IMG/VR virus record: IMGVR_UViG_2558860288_000006
Strand: one strand, 5' to 3'
Length of the DNA: 47,388 nucleotides
From: a virus
Lineage: Duplodnaviria > Heunggongvirae > Uroviricota > Caudoviricetes
The notes beneath the pieces were generated by a model. The model made no database searches. It was not told where the DNA came from and saw nothing but the letters and a program-made list of their open reading frames with translations. Every line of letters begins with the position of its first letter. The stretch's first letter is position 1. This document shows, piece by piece, positions 1,614 to 44,333 of the stretch. Position numbers and translations under genes: made by a program.

Positions 1614-3038
1614 CTACGCAATACGTATGAACAAACCAATCATGACACTGGCTGACCCGGCAGACCCGAGCCCATCACCTGACAGTGCCCGATATGACCC
1701 CGGCATACCACCACCAGAACCCCGCACATATACGGAAACGCTGCCGTTATATCCAACCCCGCTACCGGTCGTGCCGTGACACATAAATTCAACCGCGCTC
1801 AGGCGTGACCCCGGATAGCTGTAACCGCGTTTTATCCGGCGGTCGGTGTCTGCGTCTCCCTTACCGTTATAAGCCGCCAGTACAAGACTGCCTGCACCGT
1901 ACCAGCCGTCCGTGGTACCGGGAGCAATACCGGACAGAAGAGAGATAATGTCCTGTGAGGTAATCTTCAGATTTTCCCAGCCAGTCAGATAACCATTACC
2001 TGTTGTCCAGTAGCGGTTGTAATAAACATCGCCATTAATACCGTAGAAAATAATGGCCTTTGCTGTATATCGCGGCTCCGGTGGATTATTGCGTGCCTCA
2101 ACCCACCGGATGCGGACCATCCCGTTAAACAACACACCTCCGGATATGATTTTACTGTCACCCTCAACAAAATATTCACCCGGCGTCGCATTCCTTACCC
2201 AGGACAGAAAATCATCCTCTGTGTTAAAACGGATACGCTCTGCGGGCAAAAAAATATGCCCAAAACCAAATGCGCCAGGTGTCGCCAGACGCCCTTCAGT
2301 CCGGTCACGAATGTCGCTCTGTGGCGTCATTGTGGCAGCGCTTTTCAGTCCAAGATTAGCACGGGATTCCTGCTGAGCCTCTTCACCTTCATCAGCCAGC
2401 TCTGATAAACGATTCGCCGTTTTCAGTGTCGCAGATAACGCAGTATCAATATCTGCTCTGGCCTGCTCTGCACCGGATGCGGCCTTTTTCGCGGCTTCAG
2501 CATCCTGCCTGACCTCCGCGGCGGTATCCTCAACCCGTGAGGCCAGATTTTCGGCCTGTTGTTTACCCTCCGCAACCGCGTCGGCGTTCTGCTGAACACC
2601 TTCCGCCAGTTTTTTTACCTCTTCTTTTGCACGGGCGGCAGCGTCTGCATGTTGCCCTGCCTGTCGTTCGCTTTCTGTTGCAGTTTCCGCGCTCTGCTGC
2701 GCCTGCGCCACCATTTCCTCAAAACGTTTCACCACGTCGGGTTTGAGGTCACCTTCATCGATGGCTGTCAGAAAATCATTCAGCGTGCCGGGCTTTGAGT
2801 CATCGTATACAGCAATATCGCCAACACAGTACTCGTCGCGCCAGTCCTGTTTCAGATATACGCAATATTTTCCGGTCTGCGCCTTAAAAGAGTACTCGCC
2901 ACAGTTTCCTGTCACCACGTCGGCAACTGTGCGCATCACCACCTCTGAGGTGTTTACCCGGGATTTCAGAATAATGTGGCATCCGGACATGGGGATGCCT
3001 GCGCCATCAATCAGCGCACCTGATATCACTACAGACAT
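1614..3038 (-). CDS. Tail fibre protein (second fibre)
   Basis: 474 aa; long Ala/Glu/Gln-rich predicted coiled-coil segment and Gly-rich C-terminus (GSGGGMPGSYRALSGDGLGSAGSAS) typical of fibre distal domains; followed by a Tfa-like gene. Confidence 0.65.
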   Translation of the reverse strand: MSVVISGALIDGAGIPMSGCHIILKSRVNTSEVVMRTVADVVTGNCGEYSFKAQTGKYCVYLKQDWRDEYCVGDIAVYDDSKPGTLNDFLTAIDEGDLKPDVVKRFEEMVAQAQQSAETATESERQAGQHADAAARAKEEVKKLAEGVQQNADAVAEGKQQAENLASRVEDTAAEVRQDAEAAKKAASGAEQARADIDTALSATLKTANRLSELADEGEEAQQESRANLGLKSAATMTPQSDIRDRTEGRLATPGAFGFGHIFLPAERIRFNTEDDFLSWVRNATPGEYFVEGDSKIISGGVLFNGMVRIRWVEARNNPPEPRYTAKAIIFYGINGDVYYNRYWTTGNGYLTGWENLKITSQDIISLLSGIAPGTTDGWYGAGSLVLAAYNGKGDADTDRRIKRGYSYPGSRLSAVEFMCHGTTGSGVGYNGSVSVYVRGSGGGMPGSYRALSGDGLGSAGSASVMIGLFIRIA

Positions 3039-3061
3039 AGTTTTTCTCGCGATAAATTAAA

Positions 3062-3607
3062 TCAGGAAGAGGCTTCCGGAGAGACGGGCCATTCAATGGC
3101 GTTATATGAGGTTTTATCAGCGATGGTGCTGAAATCCATCGCCTGCAGCGATTTCGCGTAAATGCGGTACGCTTTCAGCTTCTCCCTGTCTTCATCACTG
3201 ATTAATCCCAGCAGCAGGTCTTTTTCCCATTCGCTGGTCATGATGCTGACCCGTTGTAACAGGGCATCGCGCTCATCTTCCGCTTTAAGTTTGTAGTCGA
3301 AGACAAATTTATCGTCGCGGTAAAACCAGTAACCAGGCACGGTAATACGGCGGTTAGCGGTAATATCAGGAACTTCAATAACACTGGCGTTACGGGGTTC
3401 AATGCCTGTCACATCCTTACCGACCCACACCACGCGCCCGTCTCCGGTGTAAACCATTTTTATGGTGTCACTGGCAAAATTTTTCAGCTCTTCATACCAG
3501 TTTTTGTCATCTTCCGAAAAAAGCCAGGTGATACCATGTTGTTTTGTCATCTGATATTGTTCTGCGGTTTTCGGATTGCCTGCAGTAATATTTTTTAAAT
3601 GCAACAT
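3062..3607 (-). CDS. Tail fibre assembly/chaperone protein (first cassette)
   Basis: 181 aa ORF directly downstream of the first fibre gene; sequence differs from the second Tfa, so assignment is by position. Confidence 0.5.
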   Translation of the reverse strand: MLHLKNITAGNPKTAEQYQMTKQHGITWLFSEDDKNWYEELKNFASDTIKMVYTGDGRVVWVGKDVTGIEPRNASVIEVPDITANRRITVPGYWFYRDDKFVFDYKLKAEDERDALLQRVSIMTSEWEKDLLLGLISDEDREKLKAYRIYAKSLQAMDFSTIADKTSYNAIEWPVSPEASS

Positions 3608-37933: not shown

Positions 37934-38356
37934 TTAATGAACAATGACAGAATTGTCGGAAGACCCGCCGCCGCTGAAATGCGCTTTCTGGTAAACGGCC
38001 TGGACTGCATCATCATGCGCATCAATTGCCGTACTCAACGCTTCCTGCGCCGCCAGTAATGCACGGCGTTCCAGGGTATCGAAGATGCAGAGTCGGTGAC
38101 GCAGCTCGCGCGGAAGAATTGCCAGAACCGCAGGGATCAGTTTCTGAATTTTTTCCCTTTGCGCTTTCGTTTCACCTTTCAACCAACGGTGATAGATATT
38201 CTGCTGATTGTTCCAGTCCTTGCCTGGTACCAGGGGCAATTCGCCGCCCCCCTGGCGCAGATATTCTTCAGTAATTGCATTGGCTACCCATGCCTGCCCT
38301 TTTTCGGCTGCCAGGGCAAACAACACTGATTCGATGTGCTCATGCTTGATTTTCAT
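37934..38356 (-). CDS. ydaT: YdaT-like early protein
   Basis: 140 aa ORF between the Cro-like and replication genes, same order and length as Rac ydaS-ydaT-ydaU. Confidence 0.45.
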   Translation of the reverse strand: MKIKHEHIESVLFALAAEKGQAWVANAITEEYLRQGGGELPLVPGKDWNNQQNIYHRWLKGETKAQREKIQKLIPAVLAILPRELRHRLCIFDTLERRALLAAQEALSTAIDAHDDAVQAVYQKAHFSGGGSSDNSVIVH

Positions 38357-38378
38357 GAATCATTTGCCTCTTGATGTT

Positions 38379-38675
38379 TCAGGTATGATCAAATGAGGAT
38401 TTGTTACTGTCATTTAGTTGCTTCACTGACATATTCTGCGAACAACATGCCGAACGTCGTAAATATGACCAGTCAATATCAGGACGAAGTTCTTCGCACA
38501 GCACCTCACCTCTTGTTGCACGTTCAATTGCTGGACATCTCTCGGCAGGCAATTGACGTACCCCTTTGATCCATTGATTTACGCTTGGAGGTGATACACC
38601 TAAAAGCCTAGCCATTGCTGTTTGCCCACCGACAACAGCACAAGCTTGCTTGAATGAATAGTTCTCTTTTTTCAT
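38379..38675 (-). CDS. ydaS: Cro-like HTH regulator (YdaS-like)
   Basis: 98 aa; HTH segment ...FKQACAVVGGQTAMARLLGVSPPSVNQWIKG...; divergent from the repressor gene across an operator-rich intergenic region. Confidence 0.6.
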   Translation of the reverse strand: MKKENYSFKQACAVVGGQTAMARLLGVSPPSVNQWIKGVRQLPAERCPAIERATRGEVLCEELRPDIDWSYLRRSACCSQNMSVKQLNDSNKSSFDHT

Positions 38676-38701
38676 CGAATGAACTCCAAAAACACACAGA
38701 G

Positions 38702-38779
38702 ATATTAGGCGACGCCTAATACAAATGTCAATAGGCTATGCCTAATACAATGAGAGTAGGGATTGCCTAATGCAATGAG
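38702..38779. promoter_or_regulatory. Divergent early promoter/operator region (left operator cluster)
   Basis: Palindrome ATTAGGC-gac-GCCTAAT (38704-38720); three direct copies of GCCTAAT(A/G)CAA(A)TG; leftward -35 TTGACA (plus tgtcaa 38726-38731) and -10 TAATAT (38702-38707). Confidence 0.5.
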
Positions 38780-38798
38780 CATAGGAGAATATTAAGCA

Positions 38799-39275
38799 AT
38801 GCTTAGTGGTAAAGACTTAGGCCGAGCGATAGAGCAGGCCATTAACAAAAAAATCGCATCGGGATCCGTCAAATCAAAGGCGGAGGTCGCACGCCACTTC
38901 AAAGTCCAACCACCATCAATCTATGACTGGATTAAGAAAGGCTCCATAAGTAAAGATAAACTTCCAGAATTATGGCGTTTCTTTGCTGATGTTGTTGGTC
39001 CAGAGCATTGGGGGCTTAACGAATACCCCATACCAACCCCCACCAATCCAGATACAAAAAGTGAACTTTTAGATATAAACAACCTTTATCAAGCAGCCTC
39101 TGATGAAATAAGAGCGATTGTAGCTTTCCTGTTATCTGGAAATGCTACAGAACCAGATTGGGTTGACCACGATGTTCGCGCCTACATAGCAGCGATGGAA
39201 ATGAAAGTGGGTAAGTATCTGAAAGCTCTAGAATCTGAACGGAAAAGCCAGAACATCACAAAAACTGGAACTTAA
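38799..39275 (+). CDS. racR: Prophage repressor (CI-like, RacR-like)
   Basis: 158 aa (matches recollected RacR length); HTH-like segment ...SKAEVARHFKVQPPSIYDWIKKG...; flanked on both sides by the same operator sequences. Confidence 0.55.
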   Translation: MLSGKDLGRAIEQAINKKIASGSVKSKAEVARHFKVQPPSIYDWIKKGSISKDKLPELWRFFADVVGPEHWGLNEYPIPTPTNPDTKSELLDINNLYQAASDEIRAIVAFLLSGNATEPDWVDHDVRAYIAAMEMKVGKYLKALESERKSQNITKTGT

Positions 39276-39371
39276 ACTTATATGGTCTGACGGAAAACTC
39301 CTGGATTCCGTTATTTAACCCCCCCCATCACTTTCTCCAGTCGCCATCACCTATTAGGTTACGATCAAAAC

Positions 39372-39415
39372 ATTAGGCATAGCCTATTGACAATCAATTA
39401 GGCATTACCTATAGT
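39372..39415 (+). promoter_or_regulatory. Rightward early promoter with overlapping operators (right operator cluster)
   Basis: -35 TTGACA (39387-39392), 17-nt spacer, -10 TATAGT (39410-39415); ATTAGGC operator half-sites at 39372-39378 and 39397-39403; 21-bp perfect inverted copy of 38726-38746. Confidence 0.5.
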
Positions 39416-39593
39416 TCCAGCATACCACCCACCCCGCCCCACAGAACGCCAGGCAATACTTCGAGTTACCAGGCAGTGGTCAGGGGTTAAGTAGCCAGCC
39501 CGAGGCGTATGAACATGACGGCGGGATTCAAATTTTGCAGTGCAGCAGTTAGTTCCGCCACCCGGCGTTAAGGGAAAAGATTTGAGGTGATGT

Positions 39594-39944
39594 ATGACGG
39601 GAGTGAAAATAGCGCCTATCGAACTTACCATAGACGCTACAGAAGTAACGGAACACTTTAGTGCGATACATGGGTTATTTAAACTTCCACCCGCTGCCTT
39701 TGAGGGTGTTCCGGAGCATGTCATTGACTTGTTTCTGAACTACATTTTTTCCTTGCTTAATAACATCGTCCTTAGTGATTTCTCGACCACATTCGGCACA
39801 ACTAACGCCAACGAAATTAGTGTCAAAGTCAAAATCATCGGGCCGCTTGAGCATCTCACTGCCGCAATCAGGGCAGGCAACCTTCAAGGTCTGATTTTCG
39901 AGCATAGAAAAATCCTTCCATCTGTTGGGGGATATTCAGATTAA
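39594..39944 (+). CDS. Hypothetical protein (116 aa); fully overlapped by a minus-strand ORF, one of the two is probably spurious
   Basis: ATG with a GAGGTG SD; same orientation as the downstream early genes and the promoter at 39387-39415. Confidence 0.3.
   Translation: MTGVKIAPIELTIDATEVTEHFSAIHGLFKLPPAAFEGVPEHVIDLFLNYIFSLLNNIVLSDFSTTFGTTNANEISVKVKIIGPLEHLTAAIRAGNLQGLIFEHRKILPSVGGYSD
39675..39905 (-). CDS. Zinc-ribbon-like small protein (76 aa); antisense to the 116-aa ORF
   Basis: C-x2-C ... C-x2-C (CPDCGSE ... CAECGRE); ATG at 39905 preceded by GGAAGGA. Confidence 0.35.
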   Translation of the reverse strand: MLENQTLKVACPDCGSEMLKRPDDFDFDTNFVGVSCAECGREITKDDVIKQGKNVVQKQVNDMLRNTLKGSGWKFK

Positions 39945-40346
39945 CCTAATTTTCGCTGTTGGGGAATAACGAAAACCACCGAAGCCCGGAGGTGGTGAAA
40001 TAAAACCGGGCACAACACGAAGGCGCATTTCCGATATCCATAAAGAGTCGGTCTTGTCTGTTAAATTTAAATGGTGGGAGTGCGCCTCCGGTTGTGAATA
40101 ACGACATTGCTGTGTGTAGTCTTTGGCGGCATCGGTTTTTTCTTGAAGTTCGACTGATGCCCGCCCTTTTTAAAGTGAATTTTGTGATGCGGTGAATGCG
40201 GCTAAGCGCACGCGGCACAGTTAAAAGTCATGTTAGTCCTTATTGGTTTGGGTGGGAAAGCCGACTGTAATTGTTAACTGGTTGCAGTCACCTGGAGGCA
40301 CCAGGCACCGCATCAACAAAGTTCATTTGTAAAAATGGAGATAATT

Positions 40347-40568
40347 ATGATTGCACATCACTTCGGAACTGATGAAATACCACGTCAGTGTGTGACTCCT
40401 GGCGATTATGTTCTTCATGAAGGCCGGACATATATTGCCTCGGCAAACAATATTAAAAAGCGAAAACTTTATATTCGTAACCTGACCACAAAAACATGCA
40501 TTACTGACTGCATGATTAAAGTCTTCCTCGGTCGTGATGGTTTACCTGTAAAGGCGGAGTCATGGTGA
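40347..40568 (+). CDS. kilR: KilR-like small protein (cell-division inhibitor family by position and length)
   Basis: 73 aa from ATG at 40347 with a GGAGA SD, same length and position as Rac kilR as I recall it. Confidence 0.45.
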
Positions 40569-40738
40569 TGACTAAGAAAATAAAATGTGCTTACCACCTT
40601 TGCAATAAAGAAGTTGAAAAAAGCAAAAGCATTACAAAACCACTTCATTTCATGCGTGGAGTTATCCCAACGACGGAAATGAAAAAATATTGTAGTGAAA
40701 TATGTGCCGAAAAAGACCAGATGGCACACGAACTTTAA
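40568..40738 (+). CDS. ydaE: Small Cys-rich zinc-binding-like protein (YdaE-like)
   Basis: 56 aa; ATG overlaps the stop of the previous gene; Cys pairs KCAYHLC ... CSEIC; length and position match Rac ydaE. Confidence 0.4.
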   Translation: MTKKIKCAYHLCNKEVEKSKSITKPLHFMRGVIPTTEMKKYCSEICAEKDQMAHEL

Positions 40739-40812
40739 TTAACTGACTATTCGAAACTGAATTTATGCCAGCAATGGCAGGGATTCGCTCAACCTTAATT
40801 AAGGAGAAAAAC

Positions 40813-41088
40813 ATGATTACCAATTATGAAGCCACTGTTGTAACTACCGATGACATTGTTCACGAGGTTAATCTGGAAGGAAAGCGTATTGGCTACGTGA
40901 TTAAAACAGAAAATAAAGAAACCCCATTCACTGTGGTTGATATCGACGGTCCATCAGGCAACGTAAAAACACTTGATGAAGGTGTCACAAAAATGTGCCT
41001 GGTTCACATCGGAAAGAATCTGCCCGCAGAAAAAAAAGCCGGATTTCTGGCAACTCTGATTGCAATGAAATTAAACGGTGAAATCTGA
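40813..41088 (+). CDS. racC: RacC-like small protein
   Basis: 91 aa from ATG at 40813 with an AAGGAG SD; position upstream of the RecE-like gene. Confidence 0.4.
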   Translation: MITNYEATVVTTDDIVHEVNLEGKRIGYVIKTENKETPFTVVDIDGPSGNVKTLDEGVTKMCLVHIGKNLPAEKKAGFLATLIAMKLNGEI

Positions 41089-41189
41089 AAGAAATAGCCT
41101 GCGTATGGCGCAGGCTATGAACAGTGTGTATCCGGCAAGATCATTCACTGAACAAAACGAATTTTAATCTGAGTTGAGGTTAAAAAACA

Positions 41190-44100
41190 ATGAGCACAAA
41201 ACCACTCTTCCTGTTACGGAAAGCGAAAAAATCATCCGGTGAACCTGACGTCGTCCTGTGGGCAAGCGACGATTTTGAATCGACCTGTGCCACTCTGGAC
41301 TACCTGATCGTTAAGTCAGGTAAAAAACTGAGCAGTTATTTTAAAGCTGTTGCCACGAATTTTCCTGTCGTTAATGACCTTCCCCCTGAAGGTGAGATCG
41401 ATTTTACCTGGAGTGAACGCTATCAACTCAGCAAAGACTCCATGACCTGGGAACTAAAACCGGGAGCAGCGCCAGACGACGTTCACCACCATGATAATGC
41501 TCAGGAAACCAAAGAACTGGCGGGGGGCCAGGAAGAAAACGCGCAGGCAGACGCCCACGGGGATTGCCAGGATTGCGAAGTCTCTGTAGCCACTTTGCGG
41601 TTCACACAGCGTCTTCTGCACATTTTTACGTATGCGGCCGGGGATCGGAAATACCTGCATCATGCCACCCGTGAACAACGCGAACACATCACTGCTCTTG
41701 AGATGGATCAGGAAAACAGCTATGTCCAGAATCTGCTGTTGGCCATACGCGGCATGGCAGAACCGACAACTCTGGATAATGCCGCCCTGCTCCGCCTGAC
41801 TGATGCAATTAAGGCAGTTTTCTCTATCACGAAAAAACATCAGCCCTATGAATTTAAGAATTTCATTTCAGCCTGGCTGGATACCGAACACATTGATCGC
41901 GGTCTTCTGACAAAAGAATGGCGAAAAGGGAATCGTGTTTCACGCATCACTCGCACGGCTTCCGGTGCTAATGCTGGCGGCGGGAACCTCACCGATCGCG
42001 GCGAAGGTTTCGTCCACGATCTGACGTCACTGGCGCGCGATGTAGCCACTGGCGTACTGGCCCGTTCAATGGACGTGGACATCTATAACCTTCATCCGGC
42101 ACACGCTAAACGCATTGAGGAAATTATCGCTGAAAATAAACCGCCCTTTTCTGTTTTCCGCGACAAATTCATCACCATGCCTGGCGGGCTGGATTATTCC
42201 CGCGCCATCGTGGTTGCGTCCGTGAAAGAAGCACCAATTGGGATCGAGGTCATCCCCGCGCACGTCACTGAATATCTGAACAAAGTACTGACTGAAACCG
42301 ATCATGCCAACCCTGATCCGGAAATCGTGGATATTGCCTGCGGTCGCTCCTCTGCCCCGATGCCGCAGCGTGTAACAGAAGAAGAAAAACAGGATGATGA
42401 AGAAAAACCGCAACCATCTTGCGCAATGGCAGATGAACAGGCAACGGCTGAAACAGTGGAACCGGATGCAACTGAACATCATCATGACACGCAGCCGCTG
42501 GATGCTCAGTCACAGGTAAATTCTGTTGATGCGAAATATCAGAAACTGCGGGCAGAACTCCATGAAGCCCGGAAAAACATTCCGCCCAAAAATCCTGTCG
42601 ATGCAGACAAATTACTGGCTGCCTATCGCGGAGAATTTGTTGAAGGGATTAGCGCCCCGAATGATCCGAAATGGGTTAAGGGGATCCAGACCCGCGATTC
42701 TGTGTACCAGCATCAGCCAAAAACGGAACAGAACGACCGAAAATCGGAACAAAACGGCCAAAATGCGCGACAAAATGAACCAGAAGCGCAACAGGAACCG
42801 GAAAAAGTCTGCGCCGCCTGCGGTCAGACTGACGGGGATAACTGCCCTGACTGTGGTGCGGTAATGGGCGACGCAACATACCAGGAAACATTCGATGAAG
42901 AGAATCAGGTTGAAGCTAAGGAAAATGATCCGGAGGAAATGGAAGGCGCTGAACATCCGCACAAGGAGAACGCTGGCAGCAATCCGCATTGCGATTGCAG
43001 TGATGAAGCTGGTGAAGCGACAGCACCTGTAGAAACTGAAATCATGTGGCCGTCATATTTCGAGCCAGGCCGCTATGAAAACCTCCCGAACGAGGTTTAT
43101 CACTCCGCCAACGGAATAAGCAGCACAATGCTGAAGGATGCCCGCATCAGCCTGATGTATTACCACGGACGGCACATTGCCGGAACTATTCCGGGCGAGG
43201 AAAGTGATGCATTGCTGCGTGGGCGGATTATTCACAGCTATGTTCTGGAAACGGATAAATTCGCTGATGAGTATGCCATTCCGGTACCGGTTCCTGAATA
43301 TGTGGTTACTACTTCTAACGAACTGATCGCCATCATTAAAAAACACAATGCCAGTCTGCCAGCACCGATGACACCAGAGCAGATGAAAGAGTGGATCGAA
43401 AGCTACAACAGCACTCTTATACAGCCACTGTCGGTAAGTGCCGGGGCCGAAGAAACAGGCATCCTTTACTGTTCGCTTCCGGAGGAATTCCGGCGTATTC
43501 CTGAGGGGGAAAAACACACAGCATCAGCAATGAAAGCCTGTATTAAAGAATACAACGCAAACCTCCCTCCTCTGTTGAAAACCAGTGGATCACGGGAGCA
43601 ACTTCTGGAGCAAATTGAAACTGTAGATCCAGAACTGGCAAAAAAAGAACGTGCTAAATCTTTGCCTTACAACATCAGTGGCACAAAAGAGCAATTAACC
43701 GAAATCGCACGGAAAATTCGCCCGGAACTGGTGACACTGGAAGACTGGCAAAAACGCCAGCAAGAAGAAAACGCCGGGAAAACGTTTATCAGTCCGGATA
43801 TGTATGAACAGGCAAAAAATATTCACGCTGCACTGCAAAACAATACCGATGCAGCAAGGCTACTCAACCACCCGGATCGCAAATCTGAAATCAGCTATTT
43901 CGGGTTTGATGAAGAAACCGGGCTGGAAATCAGGGTCCGTCCTGATATCGAAATCCGGCTGCCATACGAAAGCATTTGCGCCGACGTGAAGTCAGTCAGC
44001 CTCGGTTATGTGCGACAGGAACGACTGAAAGATCGCCTGCACCGTGAAATTATTGAGCGTGATTATCACCTCAGCGCAGCAATGTATTGCGATGTGGCAA

Positions 44101-44333
44101 ACCTGGACAAATTTTTCTGGATCTTCGTCAACAAAGATGCTGGCTATCACTGGGTGGCCGTCGTGGAAGCCTCGCAGGAACTCCTGGAACTTGGTCGACA
44201 GGAATATCGCCGGACGCTACGACAGATAAATGAAGCTCTGGAGACAAACAACTGGCCAGCACCGATTACCGAAAGTTATACCGACGAATTAAACGACTTT
44301 GATCTTCGTCGTCTTGAAGCACTGAGCATCTGA
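41190..44333 (+). CDS. recE: RecE-like exonuclease (exonuclease VIII family) with long acidic N-terminal extension
   Basis: 1047 aa; C-terminal PD-(D/E)xK-type block ...[23 protein letters not shown]...; followed by a RecT-like gene as in Rac recE-recT. Confidence 0.55.

Follow-up and report, generated by a model that had tools for sequence, protein, structure and literature searches.

The viral contig IMGVR_UViG_2558860288_000006 (47,388 nucleotides [nt]), whose full length is called the window below, carries a repressor gene enclosed by two sets of operator-like repeats, and the organization of this locus is the subject of the present analysis. The segment 38300-39700 is 99.8% identical to Escherichia coli strain R1, where the locus is annotated ydaT, ydaS and racR, and the segment 38300-39581 is 97.8% identical to E. 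coli K-12 MG1655, which carries the same annotation. ydaT and ydaS are oriented leftward, whereas racR and then the kilR-recE genes are oriented rightward. Its sequence identifies the locus as the immunity region of a Rac-type lambdoid prophage of E. coli. An earlier reading made from the DNA letters (hereafter the sequence-only reading) had called the 158-amino-acid (aa) product a repressor and its leftward neighbor Cro-like. The former proved to be RacR, the Rac prophage repressor, according to sequence identity and RefSeq annotation, and the latter is ydaS, with matches to P22_Cro and YdaS_toxin. Few transcription factors are essential in E. coli K-12, and RacR is among them. The protein encoded in the window differs from K-12 RacR by 2 substitutions in 158 residues; it matched HTH_17 weakly in Pfam, and neither a PHROG family nor, by sequence, a solved structure was matched. 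There was no Peptidase_S24 match in Pfam, so RacR lacks the self-cleavage domain that marks LexA/CI-type repressors.

As the sequence-only reading had described, the 21-nt sequence TGTCAATAGGCTATGCCTAAT at 38726-38746 recurs at 39372-39392 as its perfect (100%) reverse complement; 625 nt separate the two arms. In 100 dinucleotide shuffles of the window, no match to this 21-bp repeat was found with 3 mismatches allowed. The six heptamers GCCTAAT/ATTAGGC reported by the same reading, four to the left of racR (with a palindrome at 38704-38720) and two to the right, were also in place. Their total is not enriched, as the window holds 7 against 5.0 expected and 21 of 100 shuffles reached 7. Six of the seven are, however, clustered within 38704-38771 (four) and 39372-39403 (two), where the background rate predicts only ~0.007 and ~0.004, respectively. 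Each of these heptamers is half of a 17-bp dyad; there are four dyads on the left (O1-O4, starting at 38704, 38730, 38755 and 38791) and two on the right (OL1 and OL2, starting at 39372 and 39397; Table 1). The two best candidates of a promoter scan of the region were PydaS on the minus strand and a PL-like promoter on the plus strand, whose -35 boxes are provided by the two repeat copies. Both promoters had been proposed by the sequence-only reading. The hexamers of the leftward one are those that have been mapped and mutated (PMC9638921), and kilR, ydaE, racC and recE lie on the plus strand downstream of the rightward one. In K-12, the repeat is 20/21, the left copy differing at the central spacer base, which is presumably not contacted by the repressor; the perfect 21/21 match is strain-specific. 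The 21-bp repeat is the best-kept part of a ~44-bp mirror-image inverted duplication that comprises a whole promoter/operator cassette.

The left half of this finding, mechanism included, is already known. Three GCCTAA/TTAGGC repeats were described in the 123-bp racR-ydaS intergenic region, where RacR formed three DNA complexes in an electrophoretic mobility shift assay and the region was enriched in chromatin immunoprecipitation (Krishnamurthi et al., mSphere 2017, PMC5700373). In K-12, a single ydaS start site was mapped by primer extension, PydaS was assigned the -35 box TTGACA and the -10 box TAATAT, and mutation of the -10 box abolished activity (Wisniewska et al., NAR 2022, PMC9638921). 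In DNase I footprinting by the same authors, the ydaS promoter was protected at the lowest RacR concentration; the monomer motif was ATTAGGC and the operators were (T/A)TAGGC-N3-GCCTA(T/A), one of them spanning the racR ATG. YdaS repressed itself but not racR (PMC9638921). RacR formed octamers in gel filtration, which were assigned to the four intergenic dyads (PMC11014345). With regard to the published operator family, O1, O2 and OL1 are exact members, and O3, O4 and OL2 are each off in one half-site. An additional half-site, TTAGGC, lies beyond O4 at 38817-38822. Apart from the two substitutions, the window shares with K-12 the protein, the dyads and the PydaS hexamers, whereas the K-12 papers examined cover the intergenic region only, with the octamer on its four dyads, and leave the downstream dyad pair and promoter unmentioned. 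In the accessible papers we found no mention of sites or a promoter downstream of racR, and the right-operator string was absent in a full-text search, which covers running text and not figures or supplements.

We scored a half-site matrix, trained solely on the four left dyads, over the whole 47-kb window. OL1 ranked joint second in the window (20.8 bits), and OL2 was the best remaining site, followed by one at 11.4 bits. The right geometry mirrors that of PydaS. In the direction of transcription, the left module reads ATTAGGCATAGCCTATTGACATTTGTATTAGGCGTCGCCTAATAT and the right module reads ATTAGGCATAGCCTATTGACAATCAATTAGGCATTACCTATAGT; the distal dyad ends with the TT that starts the -35 box, and the proximal dyad, which starts 25 bp (right) or 26 bp (left) past the start of the distal one, fills the spacer and gives the first four bases of the -10 box. 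The sequence-only reading had taken the heptamers as OL/OR-like sets sharing one repressor, with binding that overlaps both -35 boxes. The shared sets are supported, but its count of six sites is too low, as the sites come as dyads and the racR ATG is covered by a fourth one on the left. The -35 overlap is present as well, yet the overlap with the spacer and the -10 box matters no less: in both sets the promoter-proximal dyad covers the spacer and 4 bp of the -10 box, so that repression has more to build on than the -35 box. Among E. coli genomes, 555 carry the 55-bp right module (39366-39420) at 99% identity or more, and only 76 have the left module in the form seen in this window. As in lambdoid phages, a second operator set thus overlaps, at the sequence level, a promoter pointing away from the repressor gene, and gene order and strand place the early-left operon behind this PL. 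The right set therefore looks like an ordinary, textbook OL/PL equivalent that is strongly conserved. A near half-site, ATTAGGT, lies at 39354-39360, 18 bp upstream of OL1, and a TAGGC half-site is similarly placed in Mixta; ATTAGGT might be the remnant of a third right operator.

Table 1. Features of the racR locus and its early-left arm (positions in the window; bits refer to the matrix trained on the left dyads; ORF, open reading frame)
Feature	Position	Strand	Basis and remarks
ydaT (CII-like, 140 aa), second gene of leftward operon	37934-38356	-	ORF; Pfam YdaT_toxin; RefSeq annotation of near-identical loci
ydaS (Cro-like, 98 aa)	38379-38675	-	Pfam YdaS_toxin 2.9e-31, P22_Cro 3.6e-9; PHROG 35 transcriptional repressor
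PydaS, PR equivalent: -35 TTGACA 38731-38726, 18-nt spacer, -10 TAATAT 38707-38702	38702-38731	-	Best minus-strand candidate, scan 10/12; PMC9638921
Left dyad O1, ATTAGGCGACGCCTAAT, perfect palindrome	38704-38720		22.8 bits; over PydaS spacer and 4 bp of -10
Left dyad O2, AATAGGCTATGCCTAAT	38730-38746		20.8 bits; shares 2 bp with PydaS -35; inside left repeat arm 38726-38746
Left dyad O3, AGTAGGGATTGCCTAAT	38755-38771		20.8 bits; in racR promoter region protected at higher RacR concentrations (PMC9638921)
Left dyad O4, ATTAAGCAATGCTTAGT, centered on racR ATG	38791-38807		19.5 bits; published start-codon-overlapping operator (PMC9638921)
racR (repressor, 158 aa)	38799-39275	+	ORF; near-identical annotated loci
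Hairpin after racR stop codon, 8-bp stem then UAUUUAA	39288-39313	+	Fold -11 kcal/mol, z -1.6 (not significant alone)
Right dyad OL1, ATTAGGCATAGCCTATT	39372-39388		20.8 bits; last 2 bp are first 2 bp of -35; inside right repeat arm 39372-39392
Right dyad OL2, ATTAGGCATTACCTATA	39397-39413		14.7 bits (within shuffle range); over spacer and 4 bp of -10
Rightward PL-like promoter: -35 TTGACA 39387-39392, 17-nt spacer, -10 TATAGT 39410-39415	39387-39415	+	Scan 11/12; predicted +1 ~39419-39423
Multi-segment leader hairpin, apical CAAUAC-N3-GAGUUA	39431-39487	+	Shared fold in most of 18 divergent representatives; model match 39416-39525
GAGG (39502-39505), 9 nt, ATG (39515), mini-ORF MTAGFKFCSAAVSSATRR	39502-39571	+	Stop TAA 39569-39571 abuts AGGG of purine-rich tract before next ORF
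First ORF after leader, 116 aa	39594-39944	+	GAGGTG Shine-Dalgarno; phrog_29546 at 3.6e-6 (weak)
76-aa 'ECs_2282 family' zinc-ribbon ORF, RefSeq-annotated	39675-39905	-	phrog_4852 at 1.9e-9 (weak)
Downstream early-left genes: kilR 40347-40568, ydaE, racC, recE 41190-44333	40347-44333	+	ORFs, near-identical annotated loci

Homologues of RacR occur in Mixta, Morganella and Proteus, at 56-62% identity, and in Klebsiella, Pigmentiphaga and Achromobacter. The right cassette lies downstream of the repressor gene in all of these loci except that of Klebsiella; besides the window, 7 loci keep it. Conservation of the repeats in related prophages, whose absence the sequence-only reading had listed among its refutations, is thus borne out, down to the cassette downstream of distant repressor homologues. 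In these relatives, the cassette consists of a dyad, TTGAC(A/T), and a second dyad ending in or followed by a -10 box (TAATAT, TATAGT or TACTAT); the spacing from OL1 to OL2 is always 25 bp, and the sequence around the cassette is unrelated. The repressors of Pigmentiphaga and Achromobacter (2501-3406 of locus L012 and 2501-3598 of locus L013) are 74-75% identical to RacR over the N-terminal 77 residues, and their C-terminal half is a Peptidase_S24 domain (LexA/CI-like). ATTAGGC-N3-GCCTAAT dyads are present on both sides of these repressor genes, and SOS-cleavable and non-cleavable repressors here share one operator specificity. The comparison shows that a RacR-type DNA-binding domain has stayed together with its operator/promoter cassette while the C-terminal domain was exchanged. 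The domain and the cassette have moved jointly between gamma- and betaproteobacterial phages, the C-terminal half being swapped between an oligomerization domain and an SOS-cleavable S24 domain.

Prophages of other immunity, with HK022-like, LexA-family CI or DicA-like repressors, share the flanks of the locus but not 38363-39417. Homology to five such heteroimmune loci ends at 38362-38364, at the start of ydaT, and resumes at 39418-39435, a few bases past the -10 box. At the corresponding position, each of the five carries a TTGACA of its own, flanked by dyads that are likewise its own. These results show that ydaS, the left operators, racR, and the right operators with their promoter form one exchangeable immunity cassette, as is the rule in lambdoid phages, where the repressor gene, cro and both operator sets are exchanged together. 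To judge from the alignments, its right edge is the predicted +1 of PL.

We conclude that RacR dimers on paired dyads very probably occlude both outward promoters. In the proposed mechanism, RacR dimers would recognize 17-bp dyads of the consensus ATTAGGC-N3-GCCTAAT, and racR would be flanked by two strong outward sigma-70 promoters. The leftward one, PydaS, would drive ydaS-ydaT (Cro-/CII-like) and the replication genes, and the rightward PL equivalent would drive a conserved leader and then kilR-ydaE-racC-recE. Both would use the same ~44-bp cassette, in which the distal dyad gives the TT of the -35 box and is followed by GACA, 4-5 further bases and the proximal dyad, so that RacR on both dyads would exclude RNA polymerase from both promoters in a lysogen. 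For the right side, we infer from sequence that RacR binds the dyads and that transcription starts near 39421. A RacR octamer may also bridge the two cassettes, whose centers are ~642 bp apart, purely by analogy with lambda CI, which bridges OL and OR.

Published expression data bear on the rightward promoter; in K-12, depletion of RacR derepresses both gene arms. When the C protein of Csp231I lowers racR expression, ydaC, kilR and ralA rise more than 70-fold and ydaF, ydaG, ydaE and racC rise ~40-fold (PMC6765115, PMC11014345). CRISPR interference targeted to racR at +3, +58 or +208 derepresses racC, recE, recT, kilR, ydaE and ydaG (bioRxiv 10.64898/2026.09.06.749655). Because racR transcription is reduced or roadblocked in these experiments and yet the downstream genes rise, the latter must have a RacR-sensitive promoter of their own beyond racR +208, between racR and ydaG. 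The only strong candidate for it is 39387-39415.

Several observations weigh against occlusion of both promoters by RacR. The 14.7 bits of OL2 fall within the range of the shuffles (mean maximum 13.2, overall 17.9) and are not significant alone, and the inner half of this dyad is degenerate (TATAGGTA). The Klebsiella homologue (locus L010) lacks the right set, and the searchable literature yielded neither binding or footprint results nor a mapped start for the right site. PydaS was weak in vivo even without RacR (PMC11879457), which indicates that other factors (YdaS, YdaT, OxyR, Rho) also act on the region. Silencing of kilR has been ascribed to Rho-dependent termination of read-through from the racR promoter, with no PL invoked (Shashni et al., PMC4150792), although this account is compatible with PL. 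It could accordingly be argued that the left set is the only working operator, and that the right copy is constitutive or otherwise controlled, left by an old inverted duplication, with the early-left genes silenced mainly by Rho or H-NS. The documented role of Rho at kilR (PMC4150792), the modest score of OL2 and the fact that RacR binding on the right is read from sequence would favor such a view. We consider it improbable: not just the hexamers but the dyads are kept at a fixed 25 bp from Enterobacterales to Burkholderiales, whereas the flanks are not; heteroimmune prophages substitute their own dyads at the right site; and the early-left genes are up 40-70-fold when RacR falls (PMC6765115).

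Slightly less probable still is that YdaS, either as the main ligand or alongside RacR, binds the right dyads and shuts off early-left transcription after induction. In the CP-933P switch, PaaR2 and YdaS protect overlapping sites (PMC8630535), and the autorepression by YdaS in Rac points the same way, whereas its failure to repress racR (PMC9638921) and the lack of a defined Rac YdaS consensus do not; binding by YdaS would in any case be compatible with occlusion by RacR. That the 21-bp repeats are the ends of a mobile or invertible racR cassette (a recombination substrate or an element like an insertion sequence or a miniature inverted-repeat transposable element) is suggested by a perfect inverted repeat bracketing a single gene, but we rejected it as most improbable, because racR is the only gene between the arms and no transposase is present, the flanking pentamers differ (ACAAA and ATCAA) and hence show no target duplication, the boundaries against heteroimmune prophages are at 38362 and ~39418 and not at the repeat ends, the K-12 repeat is 20/21, and the repeats coincide with footprinted operators.

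The arrangement of paired operators and outward promoters around racR resembles that of lambda, in which the repressor gene also lies between two sets of 17-bp dyads overlapping the outward PR and PL. The two also share a divergently oriented cro-like gene, a repressor mRNA with a short leader or none, and a repressor that forms octamers. Unlike lambda CI, RacR lacks an S24 self-cleavage domain and folds differently in its C-terminal domain (PMC11014345). Rac has four left and two right dyads against 3 + 3 in lambda, its OL and OR are ~640 bp apart rather than 2.3 kb, and its YdaS does not repress the repressor gene (PMC9638921). The window has neither an N gene nor boxA/boxB downstream of PL, where it carries a different, conserved leader. 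Comparable switches are DicA/dicBp of Qin and PaaR2/PL933P of CP-933P, which also belong to cryptic lambdoid prophages and in which one non-SOS repressor governs the cro-like promoter together with a PL-type promoter further downstream, from which division-inhibitor genes are expressed (PMC10448788, PMC8630535); operators have been noted at dicBp (PMC10448788) and repeats at PL933P (PMC8630535). Operator sequences and repressor families of these two are unrelated to those of Rac, and in CP-933P the repressor gene and PL are separated by a toxin-antitoxin pair.

In itself, the finding is an ordinary one. It is the textbook OR/OL layout of lambdoid phages, met in a prophage that has been much studied and with half of it already shown experimentally, and the gain is modest in that it completes the map of a well-studied switch. 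New are the right operator/promoter cassette with its deep conservation, the boundary at its +1, the RacR/S24 domain swap, and the leader of PL described below. A second dyad pair 640 bp away, on a near-consensus promoter of kilR/recET, would change the stoichiometry argument that places the eight subunits of the octamer on four intergenic dyads. The right dyads and promoter would also offer a direct explanation for early-left derepression and an alternative to read-through and Rho as the route to KilR toxicity. The leader may matter more, being structured, rarely annotated and present in ~64% of complete E. coli genomes.

The leader (39416-39590) extends from the predicted +1 (39416/39421) and is conserved downstream of PL in prophages of all compared immunity types. 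It was found in 3454 of 5426 complete E. coli genomes (5869 copies, up to 6 per genome), and also in 12 phage records. Among the 24 records listed, 18 have no feature annotated over it. Protein annotations alone cover it in the remaining six: three read "hypothetical protein" or "Uncharacterized protein", two give a misplaced "head-DNA stabilization protein D", and one, from E. coli, again reads "hypothetical protein". No Rfam 15 family matched the leader at 39416-39593 with E up to 1, and the scan of 38000-41300 at the same threshold gave nothing at the operators. A full-text search of the open literature for the core string, which does not reach older or non-open papers, figures or supplements, found no description of it. 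Upstream of the leaders inspected, TTGACA stands at a roughly fixed distance with immunity-specific repeats on either side; a strict hexamer score missed the -10 box in about half of these regions because of non-canonical -10 boxes.

We collected 66 distinct versions of the leader from a scan of viral contigs and nhmmer searches. In minimum-energy folds, the same ~57-nt hairpin was formed in most of 18 representatives with differing arm sequences, and in four representatives of the N-type lineage the inner hairpin segments folded differently. Folded as a single sequence, the leader of the window was not significant alone (z -0.36). RNAalifold on MAFFT alignments, in which the covarying arms were out of register, yielded the apical stem alone, and it was replaced by per-sequence folds and a covariance-model alignment. 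In the latter, 96.4% of cells were standard pairs, compared with 82.0% in shuffles and 30-45% when partners were slid, where the alignment was fitted to the structure and so favors pairing, a bias that the slid controls share. Double changes occurred in 116 cells against 24 expected, and 10 of 18 pairs covaried. The covariance model found one copy per PL, with a single one in the window; HK022 and the ydaS side gave no match.

The 3' part of the leader is nearly invariant (YUAAGUAGCCAGCCYGAGGCRUAYGAACAUGAMGGCA) and includes GAGG, 9 nt and AUG. The mini-ORF that begins there always opens with M-T/K-A, and the rest of the peptide is not conserved. Most versions have 6-24 codons, some have 35 or 52, and in some the frame continues into the next gene (78 codons). 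In N-type phages, the leader is found directly upstream of nutL; the loci examined (L086) have it between the repressor gene and an N-like arginine-rich protein. The mini-ORF of this lineage usually stops 5-10 nt before boxA (CGCTCTTTAACA), and several members add a boxB-like hairpin.

The closest known counterpart by map position is putL of HK022, a structured RNA beginning within a few nucleotides of the PL start (PMC9378689). Unlike putL, which has two stem-loops (~70 nt), the Rac-type leader is one long hairpin with a mini-ORF; put copies follow both PL and PR, whereas the leader was found after PL only; and it coexists with boxA/boxB in N-type phages. We rejected identity with putL, because the leader shares just a short AUGA(A)CGGCA string with the HK022 PL-nun interval and the model did not match there. 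AgvB, Pas and other prophage small RNAs were likewise rejected as different RNAs at different map positions. By analogy, the leader would act much as putL does in HK022, and protection from Rho or an effect on elongation or on translation of the first gene are hypotheses for its role. Two proposals can be put forward jointly, as a tentative and rather doubtful pair: that the leader is an undescribed modular cis-acting device setting the fate of the early-left transcript, and that RacR octamers separately loop the two cassettes over ~640 bp. In a Rac-like prophage of E. coli AR_0067 (2308-2435 of locus L015), the operators and PL are near-identical in design to those of HK022 (AAAGTACAT repeats and a TTTACA -35 box), and the Rac-type leader sits where HK022 has putL.

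A hairpin starts 13 nt past the racR stop codon, and its stem is retained in the 87%-identical O166 locus with one additional base pair; its energy is not significant alone in single-sequence folding (z -1.6). It may perhaps be a weak terminator that insulates PL from racR read-through. Beyond the leader, the 116-aa ORF on the plus strand and the 76-aa ORF on the minus strand overlap fully, and both PHROG matches are weak; the former would be transcribed from PL. The recE ORF has 1047 aa in the window, whereas the annotation of the near-identical R1 locus gives a shorter RecE-family gene and then gam and bet; the early-left arms thus differ between Rac variants. Sub-threshold Rfam matches on the plus strand were obtained for DicF (40111-40166; 37.2 bits, E 9e-6) and STnc100 (40168-40354; 37.4 bits, E 8e-6), just upstream of kilR and overlapping its start, and an RprA-like sub-threshold match also lies upstream of kilR. 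These matches suggest that the early-left transcript of this Rac variant holds DicF/STnc100-like RNAs.

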